A stretch of DNA of 64,000 bases from Candidatus Dojkabacteria bacterium (GTDB lineage Bacteria; Patescibacteriota; Dojkabacteria; J137): the NCBI GenBank assembly GCA_025999215.1, contig AP024679.1, positions 633,924 through 697,923 on the forward strand. Direction: 5' to 3'. Under the pieces are notes generated by a model. That model made no database searches and was not told the origin of the DNA. It saw nothing but the letters and a program-made list of their open reading frames with translations. The position numbers and the translations under genes were made by a program. Shown here in pieces: positions 3,441 through 64,000 of this stretch (the stretch's first letter is position 1; the number at the start of each line of letters is the position of its first letter).

Positions 3441-6400
3441 TTAAATTATTTTTTTAAGCCATTGACCTGTATAGCTATTTTCACAATTCATCACATCTTC
3501 AACACTACCTTCAACTACAATTTCACCTCCTCTATCACCACCTTCCGGACCTAAATCAATTATCCAATCAGCAGTTTTAATTACATCTAAGTTATGTTCA
3601 ATCACCAAAACTGTGTTACCTTTTGCAACCAAACCATGAAGCACCAAAAGCAATTTCCTTACATCTTCAAAATGCAACCCAGTTGTAGGTTCATCTAAAA
3701 TATAGAATGTTTTACCTGTTGAACGCTTTGATAGTTCTGTTGCTAGTTTTACTCTTTGCGATTCACCACCTGATAGAGTTGTTGCACCTTGACCTAATCT
3801 GATATAACCCAATCCTACATCATTCAATGTTTTTAGCTTAGTTTTAATTTTAGGAATATTTTCAAAAAAGCTTAGTGCTTCATTTACCGTCATATCCAAA
3901 ACTTCAGAAATGTTTTTTCCTTTATAATCAATTTGTAAAGTCTCTCTGTTGTATCGCTTTCCGTTACACTCATCGCATTTAACGTAAACATCTGGCAAAA
4001 ATTGCATTGAAATTTGAATAACGCCTGCTCCTTGACATGCTTCACATCTACCTCCTTTTACATTGAAGCTAAACCTTCCCGGTTTGTAACCTCTTGCTCT
4101 TGCTTCTTTAGTTTGTGCAAAAATATTCCTAATTTCTGTGAAAATTCCCGTGTAAGTTGCTGGATTTGATCTTGGTGTTCTTCCGATTGGCGATTGATCA
4201 ATATCTATCACTTTATCAATGTGCTCAATTCCTCGTAATGTTCCAAATTTACCGAGTTGATTTGAATTACCATTTAACTCTTTTGCTAGTGCTTTGTAAA
4301 GAATTTCATTTACTAATGTAGATTTTCCAGATCCTGATACTCCTGTAACTGCTACAAATTTACCTAGAGGAAATTCACAATCAAATCCTTTGAGATTATT
4401 TTCTTGAACATTTGTAACAATTATTTTGTTGTTGTTTACTTTTCTAAAAGATTTTAAGCCTAATTGCTGTTTAACTTCTTTTTCTATTTCATTTTTTGAA
4501 ATTTGAAGTTTTTTTGATAAATATTTACCTGTTATTGAATTATCAACTTTTTTAATGCCTTCTACATCTCCTGCGTATACTACTTCACCTCCTTTTTCGC
4601 CAGCACCAGGACCTATATCAATAATATAATCAGCTCTATTTATAGTATCTTCATCATGTTCAACAACTATAACAGTGTTACCGATATCTCTTAAATTTTC
4701 TAAAGTTCTAATTAATCTTTCATTATCTCTTTGATGCAATCCAATTGAAGGCTCATCAAGCACATACAAAACTCCCGTTAATCCTGTACCTATTTGAGAA
4801 GCTAAACGAATTCTTTGAGATTCACCACCTGATAAAGTTTTGGCAGATCTACTAAGCGTTAAATATTCAAGACCAACAGCAAGCAAAAAGTCTAGGCGCG
4901 ATTCAATTTCTTTAAAAACTTGCTTTCCTATCACGAGTTCTTGATTTGATAATGAATCGTCGTCATTGATTTGTATGCCAAAAAGTTCTTGCATTGTTTG
5001 AGAAGTTTGTAACTTCGCCTTTCCTTGTTTTGTTTGTGATACCCAAAGCTTAGCTTGTTTAATAGACATATTAACAACATCCACAATGTTTAAACCATTT
5101 ATTGTAACACTTAGAGATTCTTTCTTGAGTCTATAGCCATTACATTCTGGGCAAACCTTTTCAAACATATATTGCTCAATTTCGCTCCTTACATACTCAG
5201 ATTCACTCTCTTGATATCGTCTCATTAAATTTGGAATCACACCTTCATATTTCAAACTAACTTTCTTCTTGTTTCTGTACGAATCTGTATACTCAATTTC
5301 AAAAGTTTTATCGGGTAGTCCAAACATCAAAATATCAAAATGTTTTTTACTTAACTCACCAATAGGCTTTTTAAGCGAAAAACCTTCTTTTTTAGCAACA
5401 TTATGAATTAATTTCATCATGTAAGAATTCTCATTATCTATTATTCTGTTCCATGGATAAATTCCACCTTCCATCACTGTCAATCGTGGATTGTAAACTA
5501 GAGACAGATCGATTTCTTTTATAAATCCCAAACCGCCGCACTTACTGCACGCACCATGAGGGGAATTGAATGAAAAAGAATGAGGTTCAATTTCTGGAAA
5601 AGATTCACCAGTAGTAGGATCAACTAATTTTTCAGAATAAAAAAGATCCCCATTTTCATTCGTTTTTAAAATAGATTTATAATTTTTAAAATCATTCAAA
5701 TGAACATATATTTCACCATTGCCATAACTTAAAGCTAGTTCAACAGAATCAGTTAACCTTTTTATAAAATTATCATCATCTTTTGAATCATTATTTAAAA
5801 CAAGCCTATCAATAATCAAATCAATATTGTGTTTTACATACCTTTCTAAAGTGATATCTTCTTCAAGCGAGTAAATTTGCCCATCCACTCTCACTCTAGC
5901 AAAACCTTGAGCTAAAAATCGTGTGAATAGTTCTTCATATGTGCCCTTTCGACTTTTAATAACCGGAGCAATAATCATGATTTTAAGCTTATCAAATTTT
6001 AGTTTTTGGGGTAATTCACAAATGCTATCTACAATTTGCTGTACTGTTTGTTTTTGCAATCGCTCACCAGTTTTGTGGCTTCTTGGGTGCCCCACTCTAG
6101 CAAATAAAAGTCTTAAATAGTCATAAATTTCTGTTACTGTTCCAACGGTGGATCGTGGATTGTGTCCTGTCGACTTTTGATCAATTGAAATTGCCGGTGA
6201 AAGTCCTTCAATCAAATCTACATCAGGTTTATCCATTAAACCTAAAAATTGCCTTGCATAAGACGATAATGACTCTACATACCGTCGTTGTCCTTCTGCA
6301 TAAATCGTATCAAACGCAAGTGATGACTTACCTGATCCTGATAAACCTGTGATAACTGTTAATTTATTTTTTGAAATATCTACATCTATGTTTTTTAGAT

Positions 6401-6443
6401 TGTGAGTTCGGGCTCCTCTTACTTTGATTTTTTCTATAGCCAT
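3441..6443 (-). CDS. uvrA: Excinuclease ABC subunit A
   Basis: 1000 aa with two ABC ATPase modules (GLSGSGKSSLAFDTIYAEGQRRYVESLS; second Walker A GVSGSGKSTL) and zinc-finger cysteines. Confidence 0.95.
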   Translation of the reverse strand: MAIEKIKVRGARTHNLKNIDVDISKNKLTVITGLSGSGKSSLAFDTIYAEGQRRYVESLSSYARQFLGLMDKPDVDLIEGLSPAISIDQKSTGHNPRSTVGTVTEIYDYLRLLFARVGHPRSHKTGERLQKQTVQQIVDSICELPQKLKFDKLKIMIIAPVIKSRKGTYEELFTRFLAQGFARVRVDGQIYSLEEDITLERYVKHNIDLIIDRLVLNNDSKDDDNFIKRLTDSVELALSYGNGEIYVHLNDFKNYKSILKTNENGDLFYSEKLVDPTTGESFPEIEPHSFSFNSPHGACSKCGGLGFIKEIDLSLVYNPRLTVMEGGIYPWNRIIDNENSYMMKLIHNVAKKEGFSLKKPIGELSKKHFDILMFGLPDKTFEIEYTDSYRNKKKVSLKYEGVIPNLMRRYQESESEYVRSEIEQYMFEKVCPECNGYRLKKESLSVTINGLNIVDVVNMSIKQAKLWVSQTKQGKAKLQTSQTMQELFGIQINDDDSLSNQELVIGKQVFKEIESRLDFLLAVGLEYLTLSRSAKTLSGGESQRIRLASQIGTGLTGVLYVLDEPSIGLHQRDNERLIRTLENLRDIGNTVIVVEHDEDTINRADYIIDIGPGAGEKGGEVVYAGDVEGIKKVDNSITGKYLSKKLQISKNEIEKEVKQQLGLKSFRKVNNNKIIVTNVQENNLKGFDCEFPLGKFVAVTGVSGSGKSTLVNEILYKALAKELNGNSNQLGKFGTLRGIEHIDKVIDIDQSPIGRTPRSNPATYTGIFTEIRNIFAQTKEARARGYKPGRFSFNVKGGRCEACQGAGVIQISMQFLPDVYVKCDECNGKRYNRETLQIDYKGKNISEVLDMTVNEALSFFENIPKIKTKLKTLNDVGLGYIRLGQGATTLSGGESQRVKLATELSKRSTGKTFYILDEPTTGLHFEDVRKLLLVLHGLVAKGNTVLVIEHNLDVIKTADWIIDLGPEGGDRGGEIVVEGSVEDVMNCENSYTGQWLKKII

Positions 6444-6558
6444 AATGTTTTTTTAAACGCTATCCAGTCATTATAACATTCTCTGTTAATATTTTTAAAA
6501 TTGTATAGCAAAATTTTTTATTAAAATTAAAATATTTTATAAAAAACTTCAAAAAGAC

Positions 6559-6587
6559 TTGAACTTTTTTTGAAAATGATGTAAAAT
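6559..6587 (+). promoter_or_regulatory. Sigma70-type promoter, TTGAAC-17-TAAAAT
   Basis: -35 at 6559-6564, 17-nt spacer, -10 at 6582-6587. No ORF downstream. Confidence 0.5.
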
Positions 6588-6593
6588 TGCTTA

Positions 6594-6665
6594 GTGGTAA
6601 CTCATGTGTATAGAACCATGTGTTGCCCCTTCCCTAAAACCCTTCAAGTTCCTTGAAGGGTTTTT
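6594..6665 (+). ncRNA. Candidate small RNA 1 (about 72 nt), ends in an intrinsic terminator
   Basis: Transcript predicted from the 6559-6587 promoter. Terminator: 9-bp stem CCCTTCAAG/CTTGAAGGG (6640-6660) followed by TTTTT. Confidence 0.35.
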
Positions 6666-7328
6666 ACTTTCTTATGTCAATACTTCACAAAAAAATTAAA
6701 ATGAGCAATTTAAAACATGTAAAAAAGTATGGTAAAATTTAGTTAATCGTACTTTAGAATCGGTGAAATAGTGCTAGGCGAAAGGCTAAATATAGATCAA
6801 GGCAGTAAAAGCCCCCCAACACCTCAACACCCATTCCATTATTCATAATTGATAAGTAATCTATAAAAAATTTGGTAGTATTTTTAGTACTTTTATTGAT
6901 AACTAAAAAATTTCGAAGTGTATTAGGATATATATTATATACTAATTTTCTTTGCAAACCCTAGAGCTTTTCATTTTAAAGCTCAAACTTTACAGATTAA
7001 TAAATTTTCACTAAAAAACTTTACATATTTAACAAATATTTTGTGTACCTGTTCAGGTGGGATAATGTTCCATGACTGAACGGCGATTTCCCACCTTTTA
7101 CTACAAAGTTAATATATTTTTCTAAATTTGAATATTGAAAATGTAAAATTAACTGTCGTGAGCGAACGGCTATTACTCTTTTAATTTTTCGAAAACTCCT
7201 TCTATCTATATTTTAAATTATAACAAAATTTAGTTTTTATAAGAAAAATAAAAAAGGCTTGTTTTTTGTTTAGTTTTATTATAAAATGACATAGGATGTT
7301 TTTTTCATTTTTGTATCCTTTTTTTATA

Positions 7329-7359
7329 CCCTTCCAGTTCCATCTAGGAAGGGTTTTTT
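7329..7359 (+). terminator. Intrinsic terminator-like hairpin, CCCTTCC-loop-GGAAGGG plus T6
   Basis: Stem 7329-7335 / 7347-7353, then T-tract 7354-7359. Sequence resembles the 6640-6665 terminator, suggesting a paralogous unit. Confidence 0.45.
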
Positions 7360-7421
7360 CTTACTAAAATAACTGATTAGTTTAAAGCTAAAATTTCAAG
7401 CAAAATTTTAGCCAATAAATG

Positions 7422-7449
7422 TTGACTTTTTTTAATTTTAATATATAGT
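7422..7449 (+). promoter_or_regulatory. Sigma70-type promoter, TTGACT-16-TATAGT
   Basis: -35 at 7422-7427 and -10 at 7444-7449 in an ORF-free region. Confidence 0.45.
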
Positions 7450-7455
7450 ATACCT

Positions 7456-7556
7456 TTCAAACTTGCCGCGGAGTTTCCCGGTTCGCGTTCTCTAAGGCAA
7501 GTGAAGTCTATCTATATGGTGGGTAAAGAAAAATCCAGGCCAGCTTTCACCCACCA
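7456..7556 (+). ncRNA. Candidate small RNA 2 (about 100 nt)
   Basis: Predicted from the promoter at 7422-7449. Internal stem CTTGCC...GGCAAG. Terminal 9-bp stem ATGGTGGGT/ACCCACCAT (7506-7547) followed by a U-rich tail. Confidence 0.35.
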
Positions 7557-7688
7557 TATTTCTTTGATAAAAAAAACTTATTATAATTTTTTCAATAAAT
7601 ATTTCCATCAGAATCTATCTATACAACATCAAAATTAATTGTAAGATTTAATATTTACTAATAATACAATTTATAGTACAATACTAAT

Positions 7689-7756
7689 GCCGTGAACACA
7701 CACTCCTAACGGCACATTGAGCTCATTTATCATAAATGAGCTCTTTTACTTTTTTA
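7689..7756 (+). ncRNA. Candidate small RNA 3 (about 68 nt) with a strong intrinsic terminator
   Basis: Possible promoter TTTACT-17-TACAAT (7654-7682). Hairpin GCCGT/ACGGC. Terminator: 10-bp stem GAGCTCATTT/AAATGAGCTC (7719-7743) plus a T-run. Confidence 0.35.
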
Positions 7757-7858
7757 AAATTTATTTAAGTACGTAATTTTTTGATTTAAATACTCTTATT
7801 TAACTTGCATAATTTTTTGTTTTATTGTATCTTTACGATAATTGACACCCTCTTTCTG

Positions 7859-7893
7859 GCTCCAGAAGCAAACTTCTGGAGCTTTTTCTTTTT
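7859..7893 (+). terminator. Intrinsic terminator, GCTCCAGAAG-CAAA-CTTCTGGAGC plus T-tract
   Basis: Perfect 10-bp stem (7859-7882) followed by TTTTTCTTTTT, with no upstream ORF. Fits the same small-RNA array. Confidence 0.5.
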
Positions 7894-8121
7894 GTGGATG
7901 ATAATTGCAAAATTTAATTAGGTTACTATCATGCAATATGTTAAAATGGAAGTGTTAGAGCTTTTCTCTCAAGCTTTAGCAAAGGAGAATTCTTGACGCC
8001 CACTCAAGAATTCTCCAAATTTCCTTCTTGTTTATCTCTTTTGATGGTTAACAATATACGATAAAACTAAAACAGCCATGAGGTTTGAGCACATTTCAAT
8101 ATTTTTTGTAAATAAAAAAAT

Positions 8122-8150
8122 TTGACAAAGTTTATTTAAACGTGTTACAA
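8122..8150 (+). promoter_or_regulatory. Sigma70-type promoter, TTGACA-17-TACAAT
   Basis: Consensus -35 at 8122-8127, 17-nt spacer, -10 at 8145-8150. Downstream is a structured region closed by ACCAGGGG(8161-8168)/CCCCTGGT(8203-8210). Confidence 0.5.
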
Positions 8151-8665
8151 TGCATTAATTACCAGGGGTTTCAGGATGCGACATTACCATTGTCGTCCCT
8201 CCTCAAATTGCTCATGAAGCGTGCCCCTGGTCTTTCCTTATATCAACTTAGGTTTTTAGAGTTATTTTAAGCAGATTTTTTCACTGGGTATGTTATTTAA
8301 ATTAAATATAAATTATTTTTCATTATAGTTTCAAACTTGTAATTATTTTGATTTTTCTTTATAACTATTCCGCTTAGCATGGTCTCATTCGCCATGGCTT
8401 TGCAACTCCGCTTACTTGTTGATATACAAAATTTTCTTTAATATCTATATAAGTATCGTCTTTATTTTATTAAATTATTTGTTAACTTAAACAGTTTTTA
8501 ATACATTGCCAATTGTTAAAAATATTTAATAAAAATTTTTTGACAGTTACAAAGTTTTTTATTTATTGATCAACAAGGAAAGTAATTTATTGTTGAATGT
8601 TGAATTAATATTTTAAAAGAATTTAACTATCTTTATATTCACACCCCAAGAATCTACTAATGTTG

Positions 8666-8694
8666 TTGACACTAAAGTGTGTGTATGGTATAAT
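8666..8694 (+). promoter_or_regulatory. Perfect consensus sigma70 promoter with extended -10, TTGACA-17-TGgTATAAT
   Basis: -35 TTGACA at 8666-8671, 17-nt spacer, TG at 8686-8687, -10 TATAAT at 8689-8694. Confidence 0.7.
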
Positions 8695-8700
8695 ACTGAG

Positions 8701-8822
8701 TATGGCCCCCAAATTGGGGCCTGCAGCAGATGAGGCTTCGTGCCTCTTGTGTGTGGTATGATGCACCCTCACAATGTGGAAAACACGGAGCCTCAAAACC
8801 AAATCATCTGCTAACTTTTTCT
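8701..8822 (+). ncRNA. Candidate highly expressed structured small RNA (about 120 nt), antisense to the tyrS 3' end
   Basis: Starts about 7 nt after the perfect promoter. 5' hairpin GGCCCC-CAAATT-GGGGCC (8704-8721). Nested long-range pairings GCAGCAGATGA(8724-8734)/TCATCTGCT(8804-8812) and GAGGCTTCG/CGGAGCCTC. Then a TTTTT tract at 8816-8820. Overlaps the last roughly 20 nt of tyrS on the opposite strand. Confidence 0.45.
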
Positions 8823-9928
8823 TCGATCTGCTTTCTCCATTGTTTAATTTCATCTTGATTTAAATACTCTCTAGCAGGATCAAGTATTTGATTTAGAGTT
8901 TTAGCTACAGCTTTTTTCAAATCAGCAGGGTGAAGTTTTTTTTCAATAAAATCATTCTGTAATGTTTGATAATCAAAATATTCAACATCACCTCCCCATT
9001 TTTCAGGTCTTTCTACTTTTAAAGTAAAATTCATAACATTAAAAATCAAATGTTCTACCCAATCTAAAATTGGATTTAATTGCACAACTCCCTCAGGGCA
9101 ATAAGCTTTATTAATTTTTCTGTTTACCTCGTCTTCTGTATCAGTCATAAAAATAGCGCTATCTGGTTTGCTTTTACTCATCTTAAGGTCAGTTCCAACA
9201 TTTGCAATTTCTATTTCATTTTGTTCAATCTTTTTCAAAAGTTCTGGATTTGGTGGTGTTAACCCCATCAATAAATGGTGATGAATTGCAATAGGCTTAA
9301 TTTTTTTATCGTCTAATTTCAAATTATTAAATTTAATTTTATCTGCAACGTCTATTGCAATAACATGAGCTTTTCTCTGATCCATTCCAGCATGCGCAAT
9401 ATTTATATTCATAAAAAAAATATCTGCAACCTGCATTGGTGGATATATAAGCTTCGCAAAATCAACACTCTCACCTTCTTTTCTTCCCATTATTGAAATA
9501 CTTCTCTGTATACGAGATAGAGTTGTATTTTTACTAACATCAACAACTGTAGCCCAATACATCATGTCCTGTGCTATTTCACTACCTGTTACAAACTCAA
9601 TTTTATCAACATCAGCACCCACAACCTTTGCACCCGCAATCATATTTGCCTTAAAAAATGGAATACCCACTTCTCTGATAAATTCTAAATCTCCCCCAAG
9701 TTTATTATTAATCCATGAATGCCAATCTGCCAAAAAGACTTTACAGTTTACTCCCAACGATTGCAATTCCTTGATTACTGCCATACTCATCACCGCTGAT
9801 CCAATATGAGGTTTTCCGGAAATCTCAAAACCGATGTAATGATTTATTGATTGATTGTTTTTAATAAGTTTAATTAGTGTCTCTTCTCCGATAATTTCTT
9901 CCGTAATTTCTTTTAATCTATTTAGCAT
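8804..9928 (-). CDS. tyrS: Tyrosine--tRNA ligase, class I, archaeal/eukaryotic-like type (TrpRS not fully excluded)
   Basis: HIGH-like motif (GKPHIGS), KMSKS motif, and a class Ic Rossmann core (FLADWHSWIN). Confidence 0.7.
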   Translation of the reverse strand: MLNRLKEITEEIIGEETLIKLIKNNQSINHYIGFEISGKPHIGSAVMSMAVIKELQSLGVNCKVFLADWHSWINNKLGGDLEFIREVGIPFFKANMIAGAKVVGADVDKIEFVTGSEIAQDMMYWATVVDVSKNTTLSRIQRSISIMGRKEGESVDFAKLIYPPMQVADIFFMNINIAHAGMDQRKAHVIAIDVADKIKFNNLKLDDKKIKPIAIHHHLLMGLTPPNPELLKKIEQNEIEIANVGTDLKMSKSKPDSAIFMTDTEDEVNRKINKAYCPEGVVQLNPILDWVEHLIFNVMNFTLKVERPEKWGGDVEYFDYQTLQNDFIEKKLHPADLKKAVAKTLNQILDPAREYLNQDEIKQWRKQIEEKVSR

Positions 9929-10840: not shown

Positions 10841-11170
10841 GCTAGGCATCAAAAAGACTGTGTTCACTTTTTTAAAAAATTTTTAATCTAGAGAGATATT
10901 AAAAGAAATGAACACGAGCGGGGATATTTCGTTTTCCTTCCACCTGCACCAATCTTTGTTAAAATCGTATAAGGTACATCGGCTTTACGGGCAGGTTCGT
11001 CTTGAGATAAACCAAGACCAGTTCTTAACTTTTTGATTCTTTCTTAATTTATTGTCTTGTCTATCTTCCATATTTTGATATCATAAAATTATTGATATCT
11101 TCTTCTTTCATTATTATGCTAACAAATATAATAAAGACAAGCAAATTTTTACAACTCAAAGATGAGAAAA

Positions 11171-11244
11171 AGCCCGCTTTTGGCCTGCATGCTCCGCACG
11201 TAAAAGTAAAGAATATTTGAAGGGAAAATCGGCTGGCGAGCCCT
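11171..11244 (+). repeat. Copy A of an approximately 73-bp direct repeat (about 96% identical to copy B at 15238-15310)
   Basis: agcccgctttTggcctgcatgctccgcacgtaaaagtaaagaatatttgaagggaaaatcggctggcgagcc; the two copies differ by one inserted T and one G/C change. Confidence 0.8.
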
Positions 11245-11313
11245 TTTAAATTCCACCCAGAATGCCAATTGGCAGAAAGGACTGGACGCTTTTCGAACTT
11301 TCCCCTGGTTTGA

Positions 11314-15237: not shown

Positions 15238-15310
15238 AAGCCCGCTTTGGGCCTGCATGCTCCGCACGTAAAAGTAAAGAATATTTGAAGGGAAAATCGG
15301 CTGGCGAGCC
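15238..15310 (+). repeat. Copy B of the approximately 73-bp direct repeat, immediately 3' of tRNA-Ser(GGA)
   Basis: Near-identical to 11171-11244. Contains a GCCC-GCTTT-GGGC hairpin that would serve as the tRNA terminator on the minus strand. Confidence 0.8.
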
Positions 15311-15329: not shown

Positions 15330-15419
15330 TGGCGGAGAGGACAGGATTCGAACCTGCGGTTCCGTTTCCGGAACACTGTCTCTCCAAGACAGCGCTTTCG
15401 ACCACTCAGCCACCTCTCC
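15330..15419 (-). tRNA. tRNA-Ser (anticodon GGA), CCA encoded
   Basis: The reverse complement folds as a class II tRNA with a long variable arm. Anticodon loop TTGGAGA, T-loop GGTTCGAATCC, acceptor GGAGAGG/CCTCTCC, 3' GCCA. Confidence 0.9.
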
Positions 15420-19656: not shown

Positions 19657-22352
19657 ATGGACAACTCTAGGTTCTAGAGAAAGTATTTCAAAGTTTAGTT
19701 TGTTTTTTGCAAACTCTTGGCGGTTTAGTTTGCTTACTATTACTCGCTATAGTTCCTTAGGATCACTCTCTTACACTACATTTTTACAAAGAGAAGGTTT
19801 TCCTGAAGTAGAAGTTCCTGTAGTTGTTATAAATGTACAAAACTTTACAAATGATTTAGAAAAAAATAATAAGGAATTAACAATACCTATAGAGCAAGCT
19901 TTGAAAGAAGTTTCAATAATGGAATCTTTCCAATCGACTACAACTCCAGTTGGTTCTTTTATAATAGCAAACGTTTCACCAGAGTTTTCTTCTGATGATG
20001 CTTTAAAAATAATAAAAGATGAAATTAGCGAACAAGTAACTTTGCCTGAAACTTCAAAAATCGATTATCAAACTTTTAGAGCTGGTTCAATTGATGGTAC
20101 TCATGATCTACTTTTCTCTATCACAAATGATTCAAAAAGCATTGTAGAAATGCAAAATGATGCACAAATTGTTGCAAGTGAGCTTGCAAGCCTAAATGAA
20201 GTGAGAGAGGCTAATGTGATAGAACAGATTACAAAAGAAGTAGATTCTTCCGGAAATGAATTTTTTTATCAATCACAGTTTCAGAGAGTTGGTTTAAAAA
20301 ACAGTGATGGAAGTATAGAGTTTAAAAATGCAGTAAATATTGGTGTAGTTAAAAGAAATCAAAATGTAGGAACTATAGAGCTATCTGAAGCTGTAAGAGG
20401 AAAAGTAAACGATTTAGTTGAAGACGGAGTTTTGAGCGGTTATGAGATCAATTACGGTGGAGATTTTGCTGAACCTTTAAAATCACAGATATCATCACTT
20501 GAACAAAATGCTTTAAGTGGACTTATTGCTGTAATTATAATCTCGTTTATTTTTATTAGTTGGCGATCGTCTTTAATTACTGGTTTGTTTATACCTGTAG
20601 TAATGGCAAGCACTTTTATGGCTTTGTTTGTGATGGGTTACAGCCTAAATATAATTTCACTTTTTGCATTAATATTGGTATTGGGATTACTAGTTGATGA
20701 TGTGATAATCGTTGTTGAAGCAATTGCCAAAAAACGTGAAGAAGGTTTGGAAAGGAAAGAAGCTATCAAAGAAGCAATAAAAGACATTGGACCTGCTGAT
20801 ATTTCCGGAACAATCACAACAATTTTGGTATTCATGCCTATGCTTTTTATCTCTGGTATTTTAGGCGATTTTATTGTATTAATTCCTGTTACAGTGATAA
20901 TGACTTTGATTTTCTCTTTATTAATAGCTTTATCGCTTTTCCCAATGTTGTCATCATGGGTTTTACCTAAAGGTGATGTTAGTCAAAAGAAATTTGGTAA
21001 GGTACTTAACTTTTCAAGTAGATTTATTAACAAGCTTGGAGTATATGTTTCAAAATATACCAATTGGTACTTGAATTCTAAAATTAAAACAACTGTGGTC
21101 GCAATTCTTGGAATAGTACTTGTGGGAGTTGGGATGAATTTTGCAGGAAGATTAGATTTCAATATTTTTCCTAAAGCTAAAGACTCAGATTCAATTTTCG
21201 TAAATATTACCTATTTACCTGGTACTGATATAGAAAAAGCTAAATCAATTGCTACCGATGTAGAAAATATAATTCTTAACAATTTAGATCAATCTAACAT
21301 TGAATACTTAACTTATTATATTGCTGATGATACTCAAGCTAACTCTAGCTGATACAACTTACTCCTATTGGCTCACGTGATGAAACTGCTATTGATATTG
21401 AAACCAAACTCAATGAGTAAATTAAGAGAATTTAGTGATGCTATTAGTTTCAGCAGAGTCATCTCAAGCGGGTCCTCCATCTTCAGAGTATCAATTTTTC
21501 GCTCAAATATATTCAAATGATTCACAGGTTCTGCAGAACCGCAAGTAGTGAATTAGTTGACATTTTTAGAAATCACAGAATATAAATGGCGTAACTGTTA
21601 CAGATACTTTTGTAACTGGTTTAGATCGATTAACCAAAAAGGATGGAAGAAGATTTGCTGAAGTTAAGGCAAAACTTAGTGATACTCTCGATACTGCTGT
21701 TGTCCTTGAACTTGAAAATAAAGTATTGGAAAATTTTAACGAACAAAAATTGCAGACATCTAGGTTTGATGAAAACTCTATAGAGTTTGATAAAGGACAA
21801 GAAAGTGAAAATTTAGAATCATTTAACTCAGCAATTTTTGCCTTTGGATTCTCTTTGATAATGATGTATGCGCTTTATTGGTGTTACAATTTAATTCCTT
21901 TTCTCAACCTTTGCTAGTTATGTTTGCTATACCATTGACATTTGCAGGTCTATTCCCAGGCTTATATTTTACTAATAATCCATTAAGCTTTTTTGTTATG
22001 ATTGGAGTTATTGGGCTTTCAGGTATTGTTGTTAATAACACTATAATGCTTGTTGACTTTGCTAATCAGTCAAGAGCGAAAGGTCAGAAATATAAAAGTA
22101 TCAATTACTAAAGCTATTCAAGAAAGATTTAGACCATTAGTAACAACATCCTTTACAACTGTGGTAGGACTAATTCCTTTAGCTCTAAACGATCCGTTCT
22201 GGGAGGGTTTGGCGTTTAGCATTGTTTTTGGACTAATTGCAAGCACCACTCTTGTTATCTTTGTTTTCCCGTCATATTATGTGATGGTAGAAAGAACACG
22301 AGAATTACGAAATAAATTGTTCGAAAAAATTAGTAACTTGGTTACAAATTAA
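19657..22352 (+). pseudogene. RND-family efflux transporter (AcrB/HAE-like) pseudogene, in at least four fragments
   Basis: Fragments at 19700-21352, 21726-21917, 21878-22111 and 22050-22352 each carry RND transmembrane motifs (LLVDDVIIVVEAI; PLTFAGLFPGLYF; PFWEGLAFSIVFGLIASTTL). Stops and frame changes occur in the N-terminal region and between 21353 and 22050. Confidence 0.7.
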
Positions 22353-22371
22353 AATTAAAGCATCAAAATAA

Positions 22372-23648
22372 ATGTTCAAATGCAAAAATTGTCAAAAGGA
22401 ATATTCTAAGTGGCAGGGAAAGTGTGATTCTTGTTTGGAATGGAATACTTTAGTTGAAGATTTTGATGAGTTCAACCAAAAATAGAAAAGACTTAAAAAA
22501 ACTAGAAATTGTTGATCTTGATAGCGTTAGTTCAAACTTCAAACAAAAGTTGGTTACTGAAATTTATGAGTTTGATCAAGCTCTGGGTGGGGGAATAACT
22601 CTTAGGTCAAGCAATTTTACTTGCAGGGTCACCAGGTATAGGAAAAAGTACACTTCTTTTATTAATTGCAAAACAATTAAAAACTAAGAAAGACATTTTA
22701 TATATTGCGGGTGAAGAATCGGTTGAGCAAATAAAAACAAGAGCTGTTCGGTTAGGTGAAGATTTTAAAAATCTTAAATTTATTCAAAACACTAACATAG
22801 AGAGTATTGAAAATTTTATAGTAAAGAACCATTCTTCGTTTTCACTAATTTTGGTTGATTCTATTCAAACGCTTTTTAGTCATGAAGTATCTTCGCCAGC
22901 GGGATCAATATCTCAGGTTACAACTTCAGCAGATAAATTAGTTCATCTTGCTAAAGGTTTCAATATTCCAATAATAATTGTTGGGCATATTACAAAAACA
23001 GGTAATATTGCTGGTCCAAAAACTCTTGAACACTTGGTAGATACAGTACTTTATTTTGAGGGTGATAAAAAACATGAGTTTAGAATACTACGAGTAGAGA
23101 AAAACCGTTTTGGTCCAACAGATTTGGTTGGTTTATTTAAAATGACGGAAAGTGGTTTAAAGGAAGTTAAAGACACAAAAGAGTTATTTCAACCTAAACA
23201 AGCACCAGCAATTGGTTCAGTTTTTACAGTTGCAATTGAAGGTAACAGACCTATAGTTTTAGAAGTGCAGGCTTTGTGCACAAAGTCATATTTTGAAATA
23301 CCACGAAGAACTACATCGGGATTTGAAAAAGCTAGACTAAATATTATTCTTGCACTTTTAGATAAAATTCTGAAATTAAAAACTTATGCATATGACGTTT
23401 ATGTAAATATAACTGGTGGATTAAACATCAAAGATCCAGGAATTGATTTAGCTGTTTTGAAAGCTATTATTTCAAGCATTAAAAATGAACCTGTTGATCC
23501 TAAAAATTTGTATTTTGGAGAAGTTGGTTTGACTGGCGAAATTCGTAAAGTAATGTTTCAAGAAAAAAGAACAAAAGAAGCCAAAAAATTAGGTTTTCAA
23601 AAAATTATTTGTTCAGATTACGTTCAGCAAATTAAAAATCTCGTTTGA
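22372..23648 (+). CDS. radA: DNA repair protein RadA/Sms, interrupted by two apparent 1-nt frameshifts (near 22470 and 22600)
   Basis: Zinc ribbon (CKNCQKEYSKWQGKCDSCLEWN), Walker A in a shifted frame (LLAGSPGIGKSTLLL), KNRFG motif and a Lon-like C-terminal domain. Removing one A from ctt-a-gg restores LGQAILLAG. Confidence 0.75.
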
Positions 23649-61352: not shown

Positions 61353-61447
61353 AAATTAAACACTTCGCATATGATTTTAGCATTATAAAAAAAAAGTGTC
61401 AATATAATTTTAAAATTTTTACCACTCTAATTTGTTAAAATTTGACT

Positions 61448-61476
61448 TTAATAATAAAATTTAATAGTTGTAAAAT
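61448..61476 (+). promoter_or_regulatory. Promoter for tRNA-Ser(CGA), TTAATA-17-TAAAAT
   Basis: -10 at 61471-61476, about 10 nt upstream of the tRNA 5' end. Confidence 0.4.
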
Positions 61477-61485
61477 TTACAAAAA

Positions 61486-61575
61486 GGAGAGGTGGCCGAG
61501 CGGTCTAAGGCACATGTCTCGAAAACATGAAGGGCAAAAAAGCCCTCGTGGGTTCGAATCCCACCCTCTCCGCCA
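61486..61575 (+). tRNA. tRNA-Ser (anticodon CGA), CCA encoded
   Basis: GGAGAGGTGGCCGAGCGGTCTAAGGC... with anticodon loop CTCGAAA, a long variable arm, T-loop GGTTCGAATCC and 3' GCCA. Confidence 0.9.
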
Positions 61576-61825
61576 ATTGGTATTCTGGGGGGAATTTAAA
61601 AGGGCACGCCAGCTGAGTTTCCCTTCAAATATTTTTACTTTGCTTGAAAAGTAAGAGAGCAAAAGCGGGTTTTTTCTCATCTTTGGCTTAAAAATTTGCT
61701 TGCCTTGAGTATTACTTAGTATAATGTTGACACATGTAAATATAAAAAATTGTAGTTTGCTATAACTAAAAATACTCACCCACAGGGGTGTTGAACGTTT
61801 CACTTGAGGAGTTAATAAAATAATT

Positions 61826-64000
61826 ATGGCTTTAAAAAAATCACAACTTTATAATAAAATTTGGCAAGCATGCGATGCGTTACGAGGTGGCATGGATGCC
61901 TCTGAATATAAAAATTATGTACTCACACTTTTGTTTGTTCGCTACCTTTCCGATAAACACGCCAACAACCCAAATAGCATTGTTGTAGTTCCTGAAGGCG
62001 GAAGTTTTGCGAATCTTTCTAAATTAAAAGGTAAGTCAAACATCGGGGAAGAGATTAATAAGGTTCTTCACAAACTTGCAGAAGCTAACAATTTAAAAGG
62101 AATAATCGACATTGTTGACTTTAATGATGAGAGTAAGCTTGGTAAAGGGAAAGAGCAAGTTGATAGATTATCAGAATTAATTGCTATTTTTGAATCAACT
62201 GAGCTTGATTTTTCTAAAAATTCTGCCGAAGGTGATGATCTTTTGGGAGATGCTTACGAGTATTTAATGAAAAACTTTGCCGTAGAATCCGGAAAAAGCA
62301 AGGGGCAGTTTTACACTCCAGCGGAAGTTTCTCGCTTAATAGCAAAGTTGGTAGAGGCTAGCAAAGCCACAAGTAACTCTCAGAATGCCTATGATCCTAC
62401 TTGCGGTAGTGGGTCGCTACTTTTGAAAGTTGCAACTGAAGCAAAGCCTGTCAATCTTACTCTTTTTGGTCAAGAAAAAGACAATAATACGCATGCATTA
62501 GCAATTTTAAACATGTGGCTTCATAATGAGCCAACAGCAGACATTAGAAAAGGAAACACTTTGTCAGAACCTGCTTTTACTGAAAATGGCGCATTAAAAA
62601 AATTTGATTTTGTGGTTGCTAATCCTCCGTTTTCCCAAAAAAACTGGATGCAAGGGCTTGATCCTGAACATGATTTATACGCCAGATTTGATGGCTTTGG
62701 TATTCCTCCAGCTAAAAATGGCGACTACGCTTTTTTGCTTCACATTGTTAAATCTCTAAAAAGCACTGGCAAGGGAGCAGTGGTTTTGCCTCATGGTGTG
62801 CTTTTCCGCGGAAACGCCGAGGCCCAGATCCGCCAAAGCTTGGTTAAGCGTGGTTATATTAAAGGCATCATCGGCCTGCCCGCAAATCTCTTTTTTGGTA
62901 CAGGCATACCAGCCTGCATCGTTGTTTTGGATAAGGAGAAAGCGGCCGAACGCCAAGGCATTTTTATGATCGATGCCTCAAAAGGGTATCGTAAAGACGG
63001 CAATAAAAACCGCTTGCGCGATCAGGATATTGAAAAGATTTTGGATATTTGGCAATCACAGGAAGAAATTCCAGGCTTTAGCCATTTTGCTACTTTGAGA
63101 GAGATAGAAAAAAACGAATACAACTTAAATCTTCCCCGCTACATTGAAAACATAGATCAGGAAGATGATCAATCAATAGAAGGGCATCTCTATGGTGGAA
63201 TTCCAACAAAAGACATTGAAAGCCTTAAAAACTTTTGGCAGGTTTGCCCTAAACTAAAAGATGAGATTTTTACGCCATTAAGAGATGGTTTTGTTTCTCT
63301 CAAAGTTGACACTGACAACCTTGGAGAAACTATCCAAGAAAGAGCTGAATTTTTAAGTTTTAAAAACAAAACTCAGGAGACTTTAAGGCAGTGGCAAAAA
63401 GTACAACAGGAATATTTAACTAGTTTAGACTCTGATGTTAGGCCAAAAGAAGTCTTTTTCAAACTAGGGCAAGCACTAAAAACTGCCTTTGCAGAAAACC
63501 CCTTGCTTGATAAATACGATGTTTTTCAAGTTTTGGCTGATTACTGGCAGGAGATAATGCAAGATGATGTGTATATAATTGTGAGCGATGGCTGGCTGGC
63601 AGGCAAAGAGGTAATAAGGCTTACCAAAGAAAATAAAAACAAGAAAAAGGCCGAGATTAAAGGCTTAGCCGGGCTTGAGGGTAGATTAATACCGGTAGAT
63701 CTTCTTATCAAAACATACTTTGCCGACACTTGGCAAGATTTGGAAAAGGCAAAACAAGACCAAGAAGAAGCAAAATCTCGTATGGATGAGATAAAAGAAG
63801 AGCATGGCGGTGAGGATGGTTTGCTCTCGGATCTTGCAAGCGAATCTGGCAATATTCCCAAAAAAGATCTTCTTGCCAGACTCAAAGAACTGCAAAGATC
63901 GCAAAATTTGGGTGAGTTAGATGAAGAAGAAAAGGAAGAGCTAGATGTTTTGCAAGAATATGCGCAAAATCTAGAAAAAGAGTCCCAAGCTAAAAAAGAG
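61826..64000 (+). CDS. hsdM: Type I restriction-modification system methyltransferase subunit HsdM (3' end outside the window)
   Basis: RBS GAGGAG. N-terminal MALKKSQLYNKIWQACDALRG, motif X GQFYTPAEVSRLIAKLV, motif I DPTCGSGSLL, motif IV NPPFS. No stop before the window edge. Segment 62750-63060 is about 50% GC. Confidence 0.85.
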   Translation, partial: MALKKSQLYNKIWQACDALRGGMDASEYKNYVLTLLFVRYLSDKHANNPNSIVVVPEGGSFANLSKLKGKSNIGEEINKVLHKLAEANNLKGIIDIVDFNDESKLGKGKEQVDRLSELIAIFESTELDFSKNSAEGDDLLGDAYEYLMKNFAVESGKSKGQFYTPAEVSRLIAKLVEASKATSNSQNAYDPTCGSGSLLLKVATEAKPVNLTLFGQEKDNNTHALAILNMWLHNEPTADIRKGNTLSEPAFTENGALKKFDFVVANPPFSQKNWMQGLDPEHDLYARFDGFGIPPAKNGDYAFLLHIVKSLKSTGKGAVVLPHGVLFRGNAEAQIRQSLVKRGYIKGIIGLPANLFFGTGIPACIVVLDKEKAAERQGIFMIDASKGYRKDGNKNRLRDQDIEKILDIWQSQEEIPGFSHFATLREIEKNEYNLNLPRYIENIDQEDDQSIEGHLYGGIPTKDIESLKNFWQVCPKLKDEIFTPLRDGFVSLKVDTDNLGETIQERAEFLSFKNKTQETLRQWQKVQQEYLTSLDSDVRPKEVFFKLGQALKTAFAENPLLDKYDVFQVLADYWQEIMQDDVYIIVSDGWLAGKEVIRLTKENKNKKKAEIKGLAGLEGRLIPVDLLIKTYFADTWQDLEKAKQDQEEAKSRMDEIKEEHGGEDGLLSDLASESGNIPKKDLLARLKELQRSQNLGELDEEEKEELDVLQEYAQNLEKESQAKKE

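Follow-up and report, generated by a model that had tools for sequence, protein, structure and literature searches.

The analysed window is a 64-kb stretch of the genome of a Candidatus Dojkabacteria bacterium, a member of the CPR/Patescibacteria with a very small genome (~0.86 Mb). Its GC content amounts to 30.7%, and its genes follow the standard bacterial code, with TGA serving as the stop codon in 16 of the 47 long open reading frames (ORFs). Bacterial DnaE, Mfd, UvrA, MutS and DnaK are encoded within it, and a Shine-Dalgarno-like motif is found upstream of just one of 42 long ORFs. The tyrS gene is located on the minus strand (8804-9928) and encodes an archaeal-type tyrosyl-tRNA synthetase (TyrRS) of 374 amino acids, ending with a TGA stop codon at 8806-8804. 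This assignment relies on a score of 409.7 bits against the NF006330 equivalog (cut-off 220), on a match to Pfam PF00579, and on the name tyrosine--tRNA ligase that its relatives carry at NCBI and at JGI. Downstream of tyrS, on the plus strand, lies a locus for a putative small RNA (sRNA), present as a single copy in the window. The RNA locus and tyrS are convergent, tail-to-tail neighbours in the sequence. The closest relative on record is the JGI contig Ga0373979_00176 (JGI 3300034037), referred to below as the sister contig.

Promoter and predicted fold of the RNA

The locus begins with the -35 hexamer TTGACA (8666-8671, plus strand), which matches the consensus and is followed, after a 17-nt spacer, by the extended -10 element TGgTATAAT (8686-8694). 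The first-pass annotation of this DNA had described a textbook consensus promoter, and TTGACA-17-TGgTATAAT is indeed present as the sole site of the 64-kb window that matches 12 of 12 consensus positions. When up to one mismatch is allowed, the window has five promoter sites; 1.27 +/- 1.2 would be expected, and a count of five is not reached in any of 100 shuffled sequences. The first base of the 5′ hairpin of the RNA (G8700 in the window) is positioned 6 nt after the -10 element, in the sister contig as well as in the window, and is the likely transcription start.

The segment downstream of the promoter consists of 52-55% GC, which places it in the top 0.4% of 100-nt windows, and it is the only intergenic non-tRNA GC island in the 64 kb. 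The predicted folding of the plus strand is stable, with a minimum free energy (MFE) of -51.4 kcal/mol for positions 8696-8830 (z = -4.9, with none of 200 shuffled sequences as stable) and of -51.6 kcal/mol for positions 8700-8822 (z = -5.5). The fold of the minus strand is weaker (-49 kcal/mol, z = -3.7). A 5′ hairpin with two nested long-range helices had been proposed for this RNA, and all three elements are present in the MFE fold.

The 5′ hairpin, P1, spans positions 8700-8724 and comprises 9 bp with a bulged U8703. Its apical loop CAAAUU (8710-8715) is part of the sequence CCAAAUU, which is invariant in both genomes. P1 is followed by AGCAGA (8725-8730), the 5′ arm of the outer helix, which pairs in the MFE fold with UCUGCU (8807-8812), located over the Ser-Arg codons of tyrS; this helix exists in the window genome only. 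The 5′ arm belongs to the 9-nt AGCAGATGA (8725-8733), which repeats in inverted form the end of tyrS, its stop included. The inner long-range helix, P2, is formed by UGAGGCUUCGUG (8731-8742) and CACGGAGCCUCA (8784-8795), giving 12 bp that are predicted by the MFE fold as well as by the comparison with the sister contig. P2 encloses a variable inner domain (8743-8783) of 41 nt, compared with 55 nt in the sister contig, which begins with a conserved CCUC(C)UUG able to pair locally with GAGGC of P2. The 3′ tail AAACCA (8796-8801), or AAAACCA when A8795 is included, is invariant and remains unpaired in the MFE folds of both copies.

The RNA presumably ends with the U-tract UUUUUCUU (8816-8823), which falls within the last tyrS codons. 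If regarded as a terminator, the 3′ region of the window RNA is non-canonical, being composed of a 6-7-bp long-range stem around a 76-nt insert, namely the outer helix, followed by AAC and then by the U-tract. In the sister contig, a run of eight U begins 7 nt after P2. A consensus terminator scan calls no intrinsic terminator for the RNA in the window or in the sister contig. The outer helix, which had been suggested to double as an intrinsic terminator, is specific to the window genome. The overlap with the tyrS stop codon, which had also been claimed, was borne out for the window: over ~20 nt at its 3′ end, the RNA runs antisense to the closing codons of tyrS and to the TGA at 8806-8804, which falls in the region of the 3′ arm of the outer helix. 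The RNA of the sister contig ends ~50 nt short of the tyrS stop, with no overlap.

The copy in the sister genome

TyrRS and UvrA of the sister contig are each 78% identical to those of the window. The gene order tyrS - gap - uvrA - mfd is the same, and the gap measures 296 nt, compared with 2.36 kb in the window. This syntenic gap contains, oriented as in the window, a promoter, a hairpin with the CCAAAUU loop, the segments GAGGCGCAAUG ... CAUUGCGCCUC, the AAAACCA tail, and eight U. The promoter, GTGACA-17-TGtTACAAT, has the same 17-nt spacer and keeps the TG of the extended -10 element. As expected for an independent sRNA gene, the RNA has its own promoter at the correct distance, and this promoter is kept in the relative. 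The element of the sister contig folds with z = -6.4. The flanks on either side of the RNA block are unalignable between the two genomes, and thus the promoter together with the RNA forms a conserved island in divergent intergenic DNA.

The two copies are poorly recognizable by sequence, as the sequence-only nhmmer match between them is not significant (E = 4.3). Therefore, a covariance model was made in which the window copy was the only sequence and P1 and P2 were given as the structure. This model finds the element of the sister contig with 31.7 bits and E ~3e-5 in 205 kb. On a structure-fitted alignment of the two sequences, on which this count rests, all 21 pairs of P1 and P2 are standard in both genomes, with six double changes, three single changes and no broken pair. 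The nine pairs of P1 are all kept, two being changed on both sides and two on one side, and so are the 12 pairs of P2, with four changed on both sides and one on one side (U-G). The slid control, in which the 3′ partners are moved by 1-3 columns, leaves 34-45% of the positions paired. With two sequences, the covariation statistic is weak, and 10 of 500 shuffles attain the observed values.

Because the alignment underlying the 21 pairs was fitted to the structure, the P2 core was rechecked with trimmed sequences that MAFFT had aligned unguided, where 11 of 11 pairs are found, with three double changes and one single change. The unguided full-length MAFFT alignment misplaces the 3′ strand of P2; on this alignment RNAalifold does not recover P2 and picks a local GAGGC-N5-GCCUC hairpin. 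The compensatory changes, which the first-pass annotation had proposed as a check, back both P1 and P2 in the sister contig, as qualitative support from two sequences. They also carry information on the strand: three G-U pairs would become A-C mismatches if read on the opposite strand, and therefore the transcribed strand is the plus strand of the window. The remaining parts of the RNA are less alike. The inner domain differs between the two genomes in length and in fold, and the outer helix has no counterpart in the sister contig, where the linker has just 2-3 nt. Constraint is seen in P1 and P2, in the CCAAAUU loop and in the AAAACCA tail.

Relation to known RNA families and distribution

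The scan of the whole window at the Rfam gathering score returned tRNAs only, with no match at the RNA locus. Permissive filters were then applied to positions 8200-9000 of the window and 7120-7430 of the sister contig, and none of the models of SRP RNA, 6S RNA, tmRNA, RNase P RNA, 5S rRNA, T-box or riboswitches matched at E <= 10. Permissive Rfam scans of positions 6400-8700 and 61400-64000, as well as a scan of eight related loci, gave tRNAs and noise only. ARAGORN placed three tRNAs elsewhere in the window and no tRNA or tmRNA at the RNA site. The statement that the RNA lacks SRP, tmRNA, 6S and RNase P signatures holds for Rfam in both genomes and for ARAGORN in the window, and the Rfam scan that had been suggested as a check found no known housekeeping RNA, either at the gathering score or at E <= 10.

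Several specific identities were considered and rejected. The bacterial small SRP RNA (RF00169) gives no match at the gathering score or at E <= 10, and the covariance models of 6S RNA (RF00013), RNase P RNA, tmRNA and 5S rRNA do not match either. A T-box leader of tyrS is contradicted by the position of the element, downstream of tyrS and on the opposite strand, and by the absence of a T-box match at E <= 10. The ...ACCA tail beside tyrS brought up a tRNA, a minihelix or a tRNA-Tyr mimic; the RNA has four A before CCA, no T-loop and no shared anticodon-like loop. An archaeal C/D or H/ACA sRNA was considered as the first related locus was archaeal, and was dismissed on account of the bacterial genome, as evidenced by the DnaE, Mfd, UvrA, MutS and DnaK genes. 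CCUC-type motifs, which occur in the RNA as well as in the units of the neighbouring ORF-free stretch described below, raised the idea of an anti-Shine-Dalgarno seed, which was dropped because a Shine-Dalgarno-like motif precedes only one of 42 genes.

The search for targets gave no preferred candidate among the genes examined. In duplex predictions, pairing with the sites of translation initiation of tyrS, uvrA and mfd is not favoured. No initiation region examined among the genes of the window and the sister contig has a sequence complementary to the loop, and the complement of the tail appears in such regions about as often as chance would predict: once in each genome, in genes that are not orthologous.

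The distribution of the RNA was followed through the surroundings of its neighbours and by direct searches. Contigs around five TyrRS and six UvrA homologues were inspected, and the RNA was found in the sister contig only: it is missing downstream of tyrS in five more distant Dojkabacteria contigs (TyrRS 57-66% identical) and upstream of uvrA in six contigs (UvrA 69-73% identical). Two covariance models and nhmmer, run over ~242 kb of Dojkabacteria DNA, detected no homologue beyond the sister contig. The window's own TyrRS, used as a contig query, had nothing on record, and the scan of genome contigs with TyrRS gave one archaeal locus only. The scans of viral collections returned nothing or chance matches. 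The pattern scan of a metagenome collection yielded seven chance matches in GC-rich coding DNA; the RNA is described as lineage-restricted provisionally, because this collection lacks the known positive, the sister contig. On present sequences, the RNA appears confined to its lineage.

Interpretation of the locus and its surroundings

The novel sRNA proposed by the first-pass annotation finds support in these results: the locus very probably encodes a discrete, strongly promoted and structured plus-strand non-coding RNA, as judged from the sequence, with expression predicted. That this RNA is the product of a stand-alone structured small non-coding RNA gene, representing a new lineage-restricted family, is judged somewhat likelier to be true than false. 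The RNA would be a bacterial small RNA of a well-known kind, with the novelty lying in the family, which so far comprises two genomes.

The proposed mechanism starts with the RNA polymerase carrying the primary sigma factor, which would initiate at ~G8700 from the consensus extended -10 promoter, transcribe for ~110-125 nt and stop at the U-tract (8816-8823). The transcript would fold into the 9-bp P1 and the 12-bp long-range P2 closing the variable inner domain, leaving two invariant single-stranded C/A-rich elements exposed, CCAAAUU in the P1 loop and AAAACCA in the 3′ tail. These two elements may serve as the interaction surfaces, through which the RNA probably acts in trans, its partner being an mRNA or a protein whose gene lies elsewhere in the genome. 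The overlap with tyrS would then be a by-product of tight tail-to-tail packing and not a part of the mechanism. Expression and the exact 5′ and 3′ ends are predictions from these features, and the promoter alone suggests that the RNA may be abundant.

One general class of bacterial sRNAs comprises stand-alone, trans-acting RNAs that are transcribed from a sigma-70 promoter of their own and end in a hairpin with a U-tail. Examples are the Hfq-independent sRNAs of Firmicutes such as RsaE/RoxS. The candidate resembles this class as an intergenic gene of ~100 nt that has a strong promoter to itself, a hairpin protecting the 5′ end, a large structured domain towards the 3′ end followed by a U-tract, and short invariant single-stranded motifs in the loop and the tail. 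Unlike RsaE/RoxS, it matches no curated sRNA family, its terminator is non-canonical, and its motifs (CCAAAUU, AAAACCA) are C/A-rich, whereas the seeds of the class are C-rich anti-Shine-Dalgarno sequences. The candidate also has the profile targeted by the GC-IGR approach, which finds GC-rich intergenic candidates in AT-rich genomes (Brewer et al. 2021, RNA Biol 18:2417, PMC8632094): it is an intergenic island of unusually high GC content in AT-rich surroundings, folds stably and shows covariation. GC-IGR is a discovery method and not a family, and the RNA matches none of the motifs that such screens have added to Rfam.

The alternative explanations differ in what they make of the position of the RNA and of its structure. 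With a cis-antisense regulator, which the earlier annotation had offered as an option, or a convergent-transcription regulator, the strong promoter would fire into the 3′ end of tyrS, and the overlap, or read-through past a weak terminator, would either lower or stabilise tyrS mRNA. Cis-encoded antisense RNAs are established in bacteria, including riboswitch-controlled ones such as AspocR of Listeria and the S-box antisense RNA of Clostridium acetobutylicum, and the candidate is similarly convergent with a protein gene, in both genomes, with a 3′ overlap of ~20 nt with the final codons and the stop in the window. The lack of a canonical terminator for the RNA in either genome, and of an obvious one for tyrS, makes further transcript overlap possible. 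However, the overlap is absent from the sole homologue and so is the outer helix; therefore, cis-antisense control has no comparative support. The parts that seem to be under selection (P1, P2, loop and tail) are outside the overlap, no known aptamer is matched, and the five other Dojkabacteria tyrS contigs have no such RNA downstream. The adjacency to tyrS itself is of little weight, because the two genomes that show it have tyrS, uvrA and mfd arranged alike throughout. An antisense control of tyrS is regarded as unlikely. The riboswitch-controlled antisense RNAs, e.g., AspocR with the B12 riboswitch of Listeria, point to a further version, in which the 5′ strand of P2 has two possible partners, the neighbouring GCCUC and the distal strand, and a ligand or a tRNA shifts the balance between these mutually exclusive pairings to control termination and antisense read-through into tyrS. 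The sequence GAGGC-N5-GCCUC is invariant in both genomes, the local hairpin is the choice of RNAalifold on the unguided alignment, and in both copies it is predicted to form as an intermediate during transcription. The alternative pairing exists in the model, but it is not predicted to be favoured at equilibrium: with the local hairpin enforced, the fold is less stable than the MFE by 9.3 kcal/mol for the window RNA and by 10.0 kcal/mol for that of the sister contig. At 70% identity, four conserved bases after P2 would be expected by chance in about 1/4 of cases. The riboswitch and T-box models give no match, and the inner domain, the would-be ligand pocket, is the least conserved part of the RNA. 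Such a switch is considered highly improbable.

The remaining explanations concern the nature of the transcript. A strongly diverged housekeeping RNA (small SRP/4.5S, 6S or similar) could have been missed by Rfam, and the size, GC richness, consensus promoter and single copy of the candidate fit an abundant RNP RNA. The small SRP RNA (RF00169) in particular shares with it the length of ~100-115 nt, the GC-rich composition, the single copy, the long irregular hairpin and the strong promoter, and no gene for SRP RNA, 6S RNA, RNase P RNA or tmRNA was detected elsewhere in the window, which covers ~7% of the 862-kb contig. The explanation is nevertheless judged very improbable, and SRP, 6S, tmRNA, RNase P and 5S models give no match at E <= 10. 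The candidate has no GNRA-capped helix 8 with the conserved symmetric and asymmetric internal loops of SRP RNA, it has an extra 5′ hairpin, and it has no 6S central bubble. Housekeeping RNAs are usually alignable at marker-protein identities of 57-73%, and at these identities the RNA is absent from the syntenic sites of other Dojkabacteria contigs. It is also conceivable, though improbable, that no RNA gene exists at all, the GC-rich palindrome being a 3′ UTR, stabiliser or terminator of tyrS, or a neutral remnant, and the promoter match being fortuitous. The minus strand folds well too, as given above, and promoter-like hexamers are common in the AT-rich region (37 vs 29 expected). On the other hand, the 12/12 promoter with TG is unique in 64 kb, and its position, spacer and TG are kept in the sister contig. 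The minus strand would have A-C mismatches in place of the three G-U pairs and no U-tract after the structure, the plus-strand fold is the more stable one, and the compensatory changes speak against a neutral remnant. A leaderless mRNA for a micro-peptide is scarcely credible. An ATG is present 7 nt after the -10 element in both genomes (8702 in the window), at the expected start distance, and the rarity of Shine-Dalgarno-like motifs (one of 42 long ORFs) would agree with leaderless translation. The predicted peptides, one of 19 amino acids (MAPKLGPAADEASCLLCVV) and one of nine (MPPNSGGCH), are nevertheless unrelated, with a frame-shifting indel between them; P1 accounts for the ATG, whose three bases are a paired A, the bulged U and a paired G of this hairpin; and the substitutions keep base pairing and not codons.

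Next to nothing is known, as far as we are aware, about regulation by RNA in CPR/Patescibacteria, and the full-text literature search found no sRNA work on Patescibacteria or Dojkabacteria. The candidate sRNA with its two invariant motifs is a concrete target for metatranscriptomes and a seed model for wider searches. The immediate significance is modest, because it is one more orphan sRNA candidate from two genomes.

The RNA lies at the tyrS end of the longest part of the window that is free of ORFs, which extends over 2.36 kb from uvrA to tyrS (6444-8803). No ORF is opened there by any genetic code. An alternative code or a hidden gene was rejected, with TGA acting as a stop and the longest stop-to-stop segments having no Pfam match, and a phage or plasmid origin was rejected on the lack of real similarity to phage and plasmid records. 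The stretch contains 7-8 plus-strand units, in which a sigma-70-like promoter site lies 5-10 nt before a stably folding segment of 60-110 nt ending in a hairpin and a U-run; the units other than the tyrS-adjacent RNA are located within 6594-8245. It is a tentative possibility, suggested by this arrangement, that the tyrS-adjacent RNA is the one conserved member of an 'sRNA island' of same-strand units. The 296-nt gap of the sister contig has only the tyrS-adjacent RNA, so the rest of the island would be recent and variable. If most of the units were expressed, a streamlined 0.86-Mb CPR genome would have a dedicated locus of unrelated structured sRNAs; we know of no such sRNA battery described for Patescibacteria. 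Guesses at its use would include regulation and interactions with a host or with phages. The other units of the island are unrelated to each other in sequence and absent from the sister contig; their folds have z-scores from -3.3 to -6.9, and terminator-like sites number 8, compared with 2.1 expected.

The RNA, the tyrS end and the upstream units

The structured RNA candidate at about 8700-8823 on the plus strand is convergent with tyrS, and the two share a perfect 9-nt inverted repeat in the window (8725-8733 versus 8804-8812). The sequence AGCAGATGA, which covers the linker and the start of helix P2 in the RNA, is that of the final two tyrS codons and the stop codon, AGC AGA TGA on the minus strand. 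In the window genome, the tyrS end appears to have been recruited by the RNA to supply the 3′ strand of the outer helix. In the sister contig L002, the TyrRS likewise ends with Ser-Arg-stop, and the RNA is devoid of a matching arm.

Upstream of the RNA, the plus strand contains a 2.2-kb region (6444-8660) without an ORF, which is built of sRNA-like units in tandem, each arranged as a promoter-like site followed by a stable fold and a terminal hairpin with a U-run. The lowest fold z-scores belong to the units at 6594-6672 (z -6.9; promoter 6559-6587), 7689-7752 (z -6.7; promoter 7654-7682), 7820-7893 (z -6.3; promoter 7785-7813) and 7939-8026 (z -5.8; promoter 7905-7932). The units at 8158-8245 (z -3.8; TTGACA-18-TGtTACAAT at 8122-8151), 7290-7362 (z -3.6) and 7456-7566 (z -3.3; TTGACT-16-TATAGT at 7422-7449) follow, and a weaker one at 7040-7100 (z -2.0) consists of two helices in a possible pseudoknot arrangement. 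All of these units are located on the plus strand. Comparison of the units with each other, with L002 and with phage and plasmid records revealed no sequence similarity, and the Rfam and Pfam searches of the units returned no match.

The tyrS gene and its variable surroundings

The TyrRS encoded at 8804-9928 on the minus strand is of the archaeal type (NF006330). Once a small number of CPR sequences is set aside, the protein is matched best by sequences of DPANN archaea (Woesearchaeota, Pacearchaeota and Nanoarchaeota), with an identity of about 51-54%. The archaeal type and the DPANN matches beyond the few CPR sequences suggest an inter-domain transfer of TyrRS, which would be common to this CPR clade.

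The surroundings of tyrS are a variable region within this clade. On the other side of tyrS, the place of the window's 197-aa ORF and tRNA-Ser island is taken in L002 (1-5583) by an MmeI-like restriction-modification gene together with an AAA_21 ATPase. The 418-nt gap of L002 (5583-6001) contains another hairpin with a U-run on the same strand as the RNA, formed by GAGCG...CGCUC and followed by GAAUAUUUUU.

Repeats and candidate islands at tRNA-Ser genes

A direct repeat of 98.6% identity connects 11170-11242 with 15238-15310, and the latter copy lies just beyond the 3′ end of tRNA-Ser(GGA) (15330-15419, minus strand). The copies bracket a segment of about 4 kb that has the appearance of an element inserted at tRNA-Ser; it encodes an HSDR_N_2 protein, a DUF5655 protein and a 281-aa ORF of unknown nature. 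The region 11084-11280 is also 79% similar, in the opposite orientation, to 61565-61754, which comprises the 3′ end and the downstream flank of tRNA-Ser(CGA) (61486-61575). Immediately after this gene, a long plus-strand ORF starts from the ATG at 61827 and extends past the window end, so it is absent from the ORF lists. Its translation, judged by eye, is similar to the HsdM-like methylases of type I restriction-modification systems. The GC content of this ORF reaches up to 56%, above that of the genome, and this points to another island next to a tRNA-Ser gene.

Translation initiation and a probable broken gene

The whole window has 42 ORFs that reach 150 aa or more; only one of them carries GGAG, GAGG, AGGA or GGGG within 20 nt upstream of the start, and the regions upstream of these ORFs are A/T-rich. 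It appears that translation in this Dojkabacteria genome does not depend on Shine-Dalgarno-led initiation. The 550-aa ORF at 19700-21352 matches the AcrB/ACR_tran profile only over positions 270-594 of 1021, and the following 1.5 kb or so (21353-22850) contains a single small ORF of about 100 aa; the stretch 19700-22850 is probably a disrupted efflux-pump gene.
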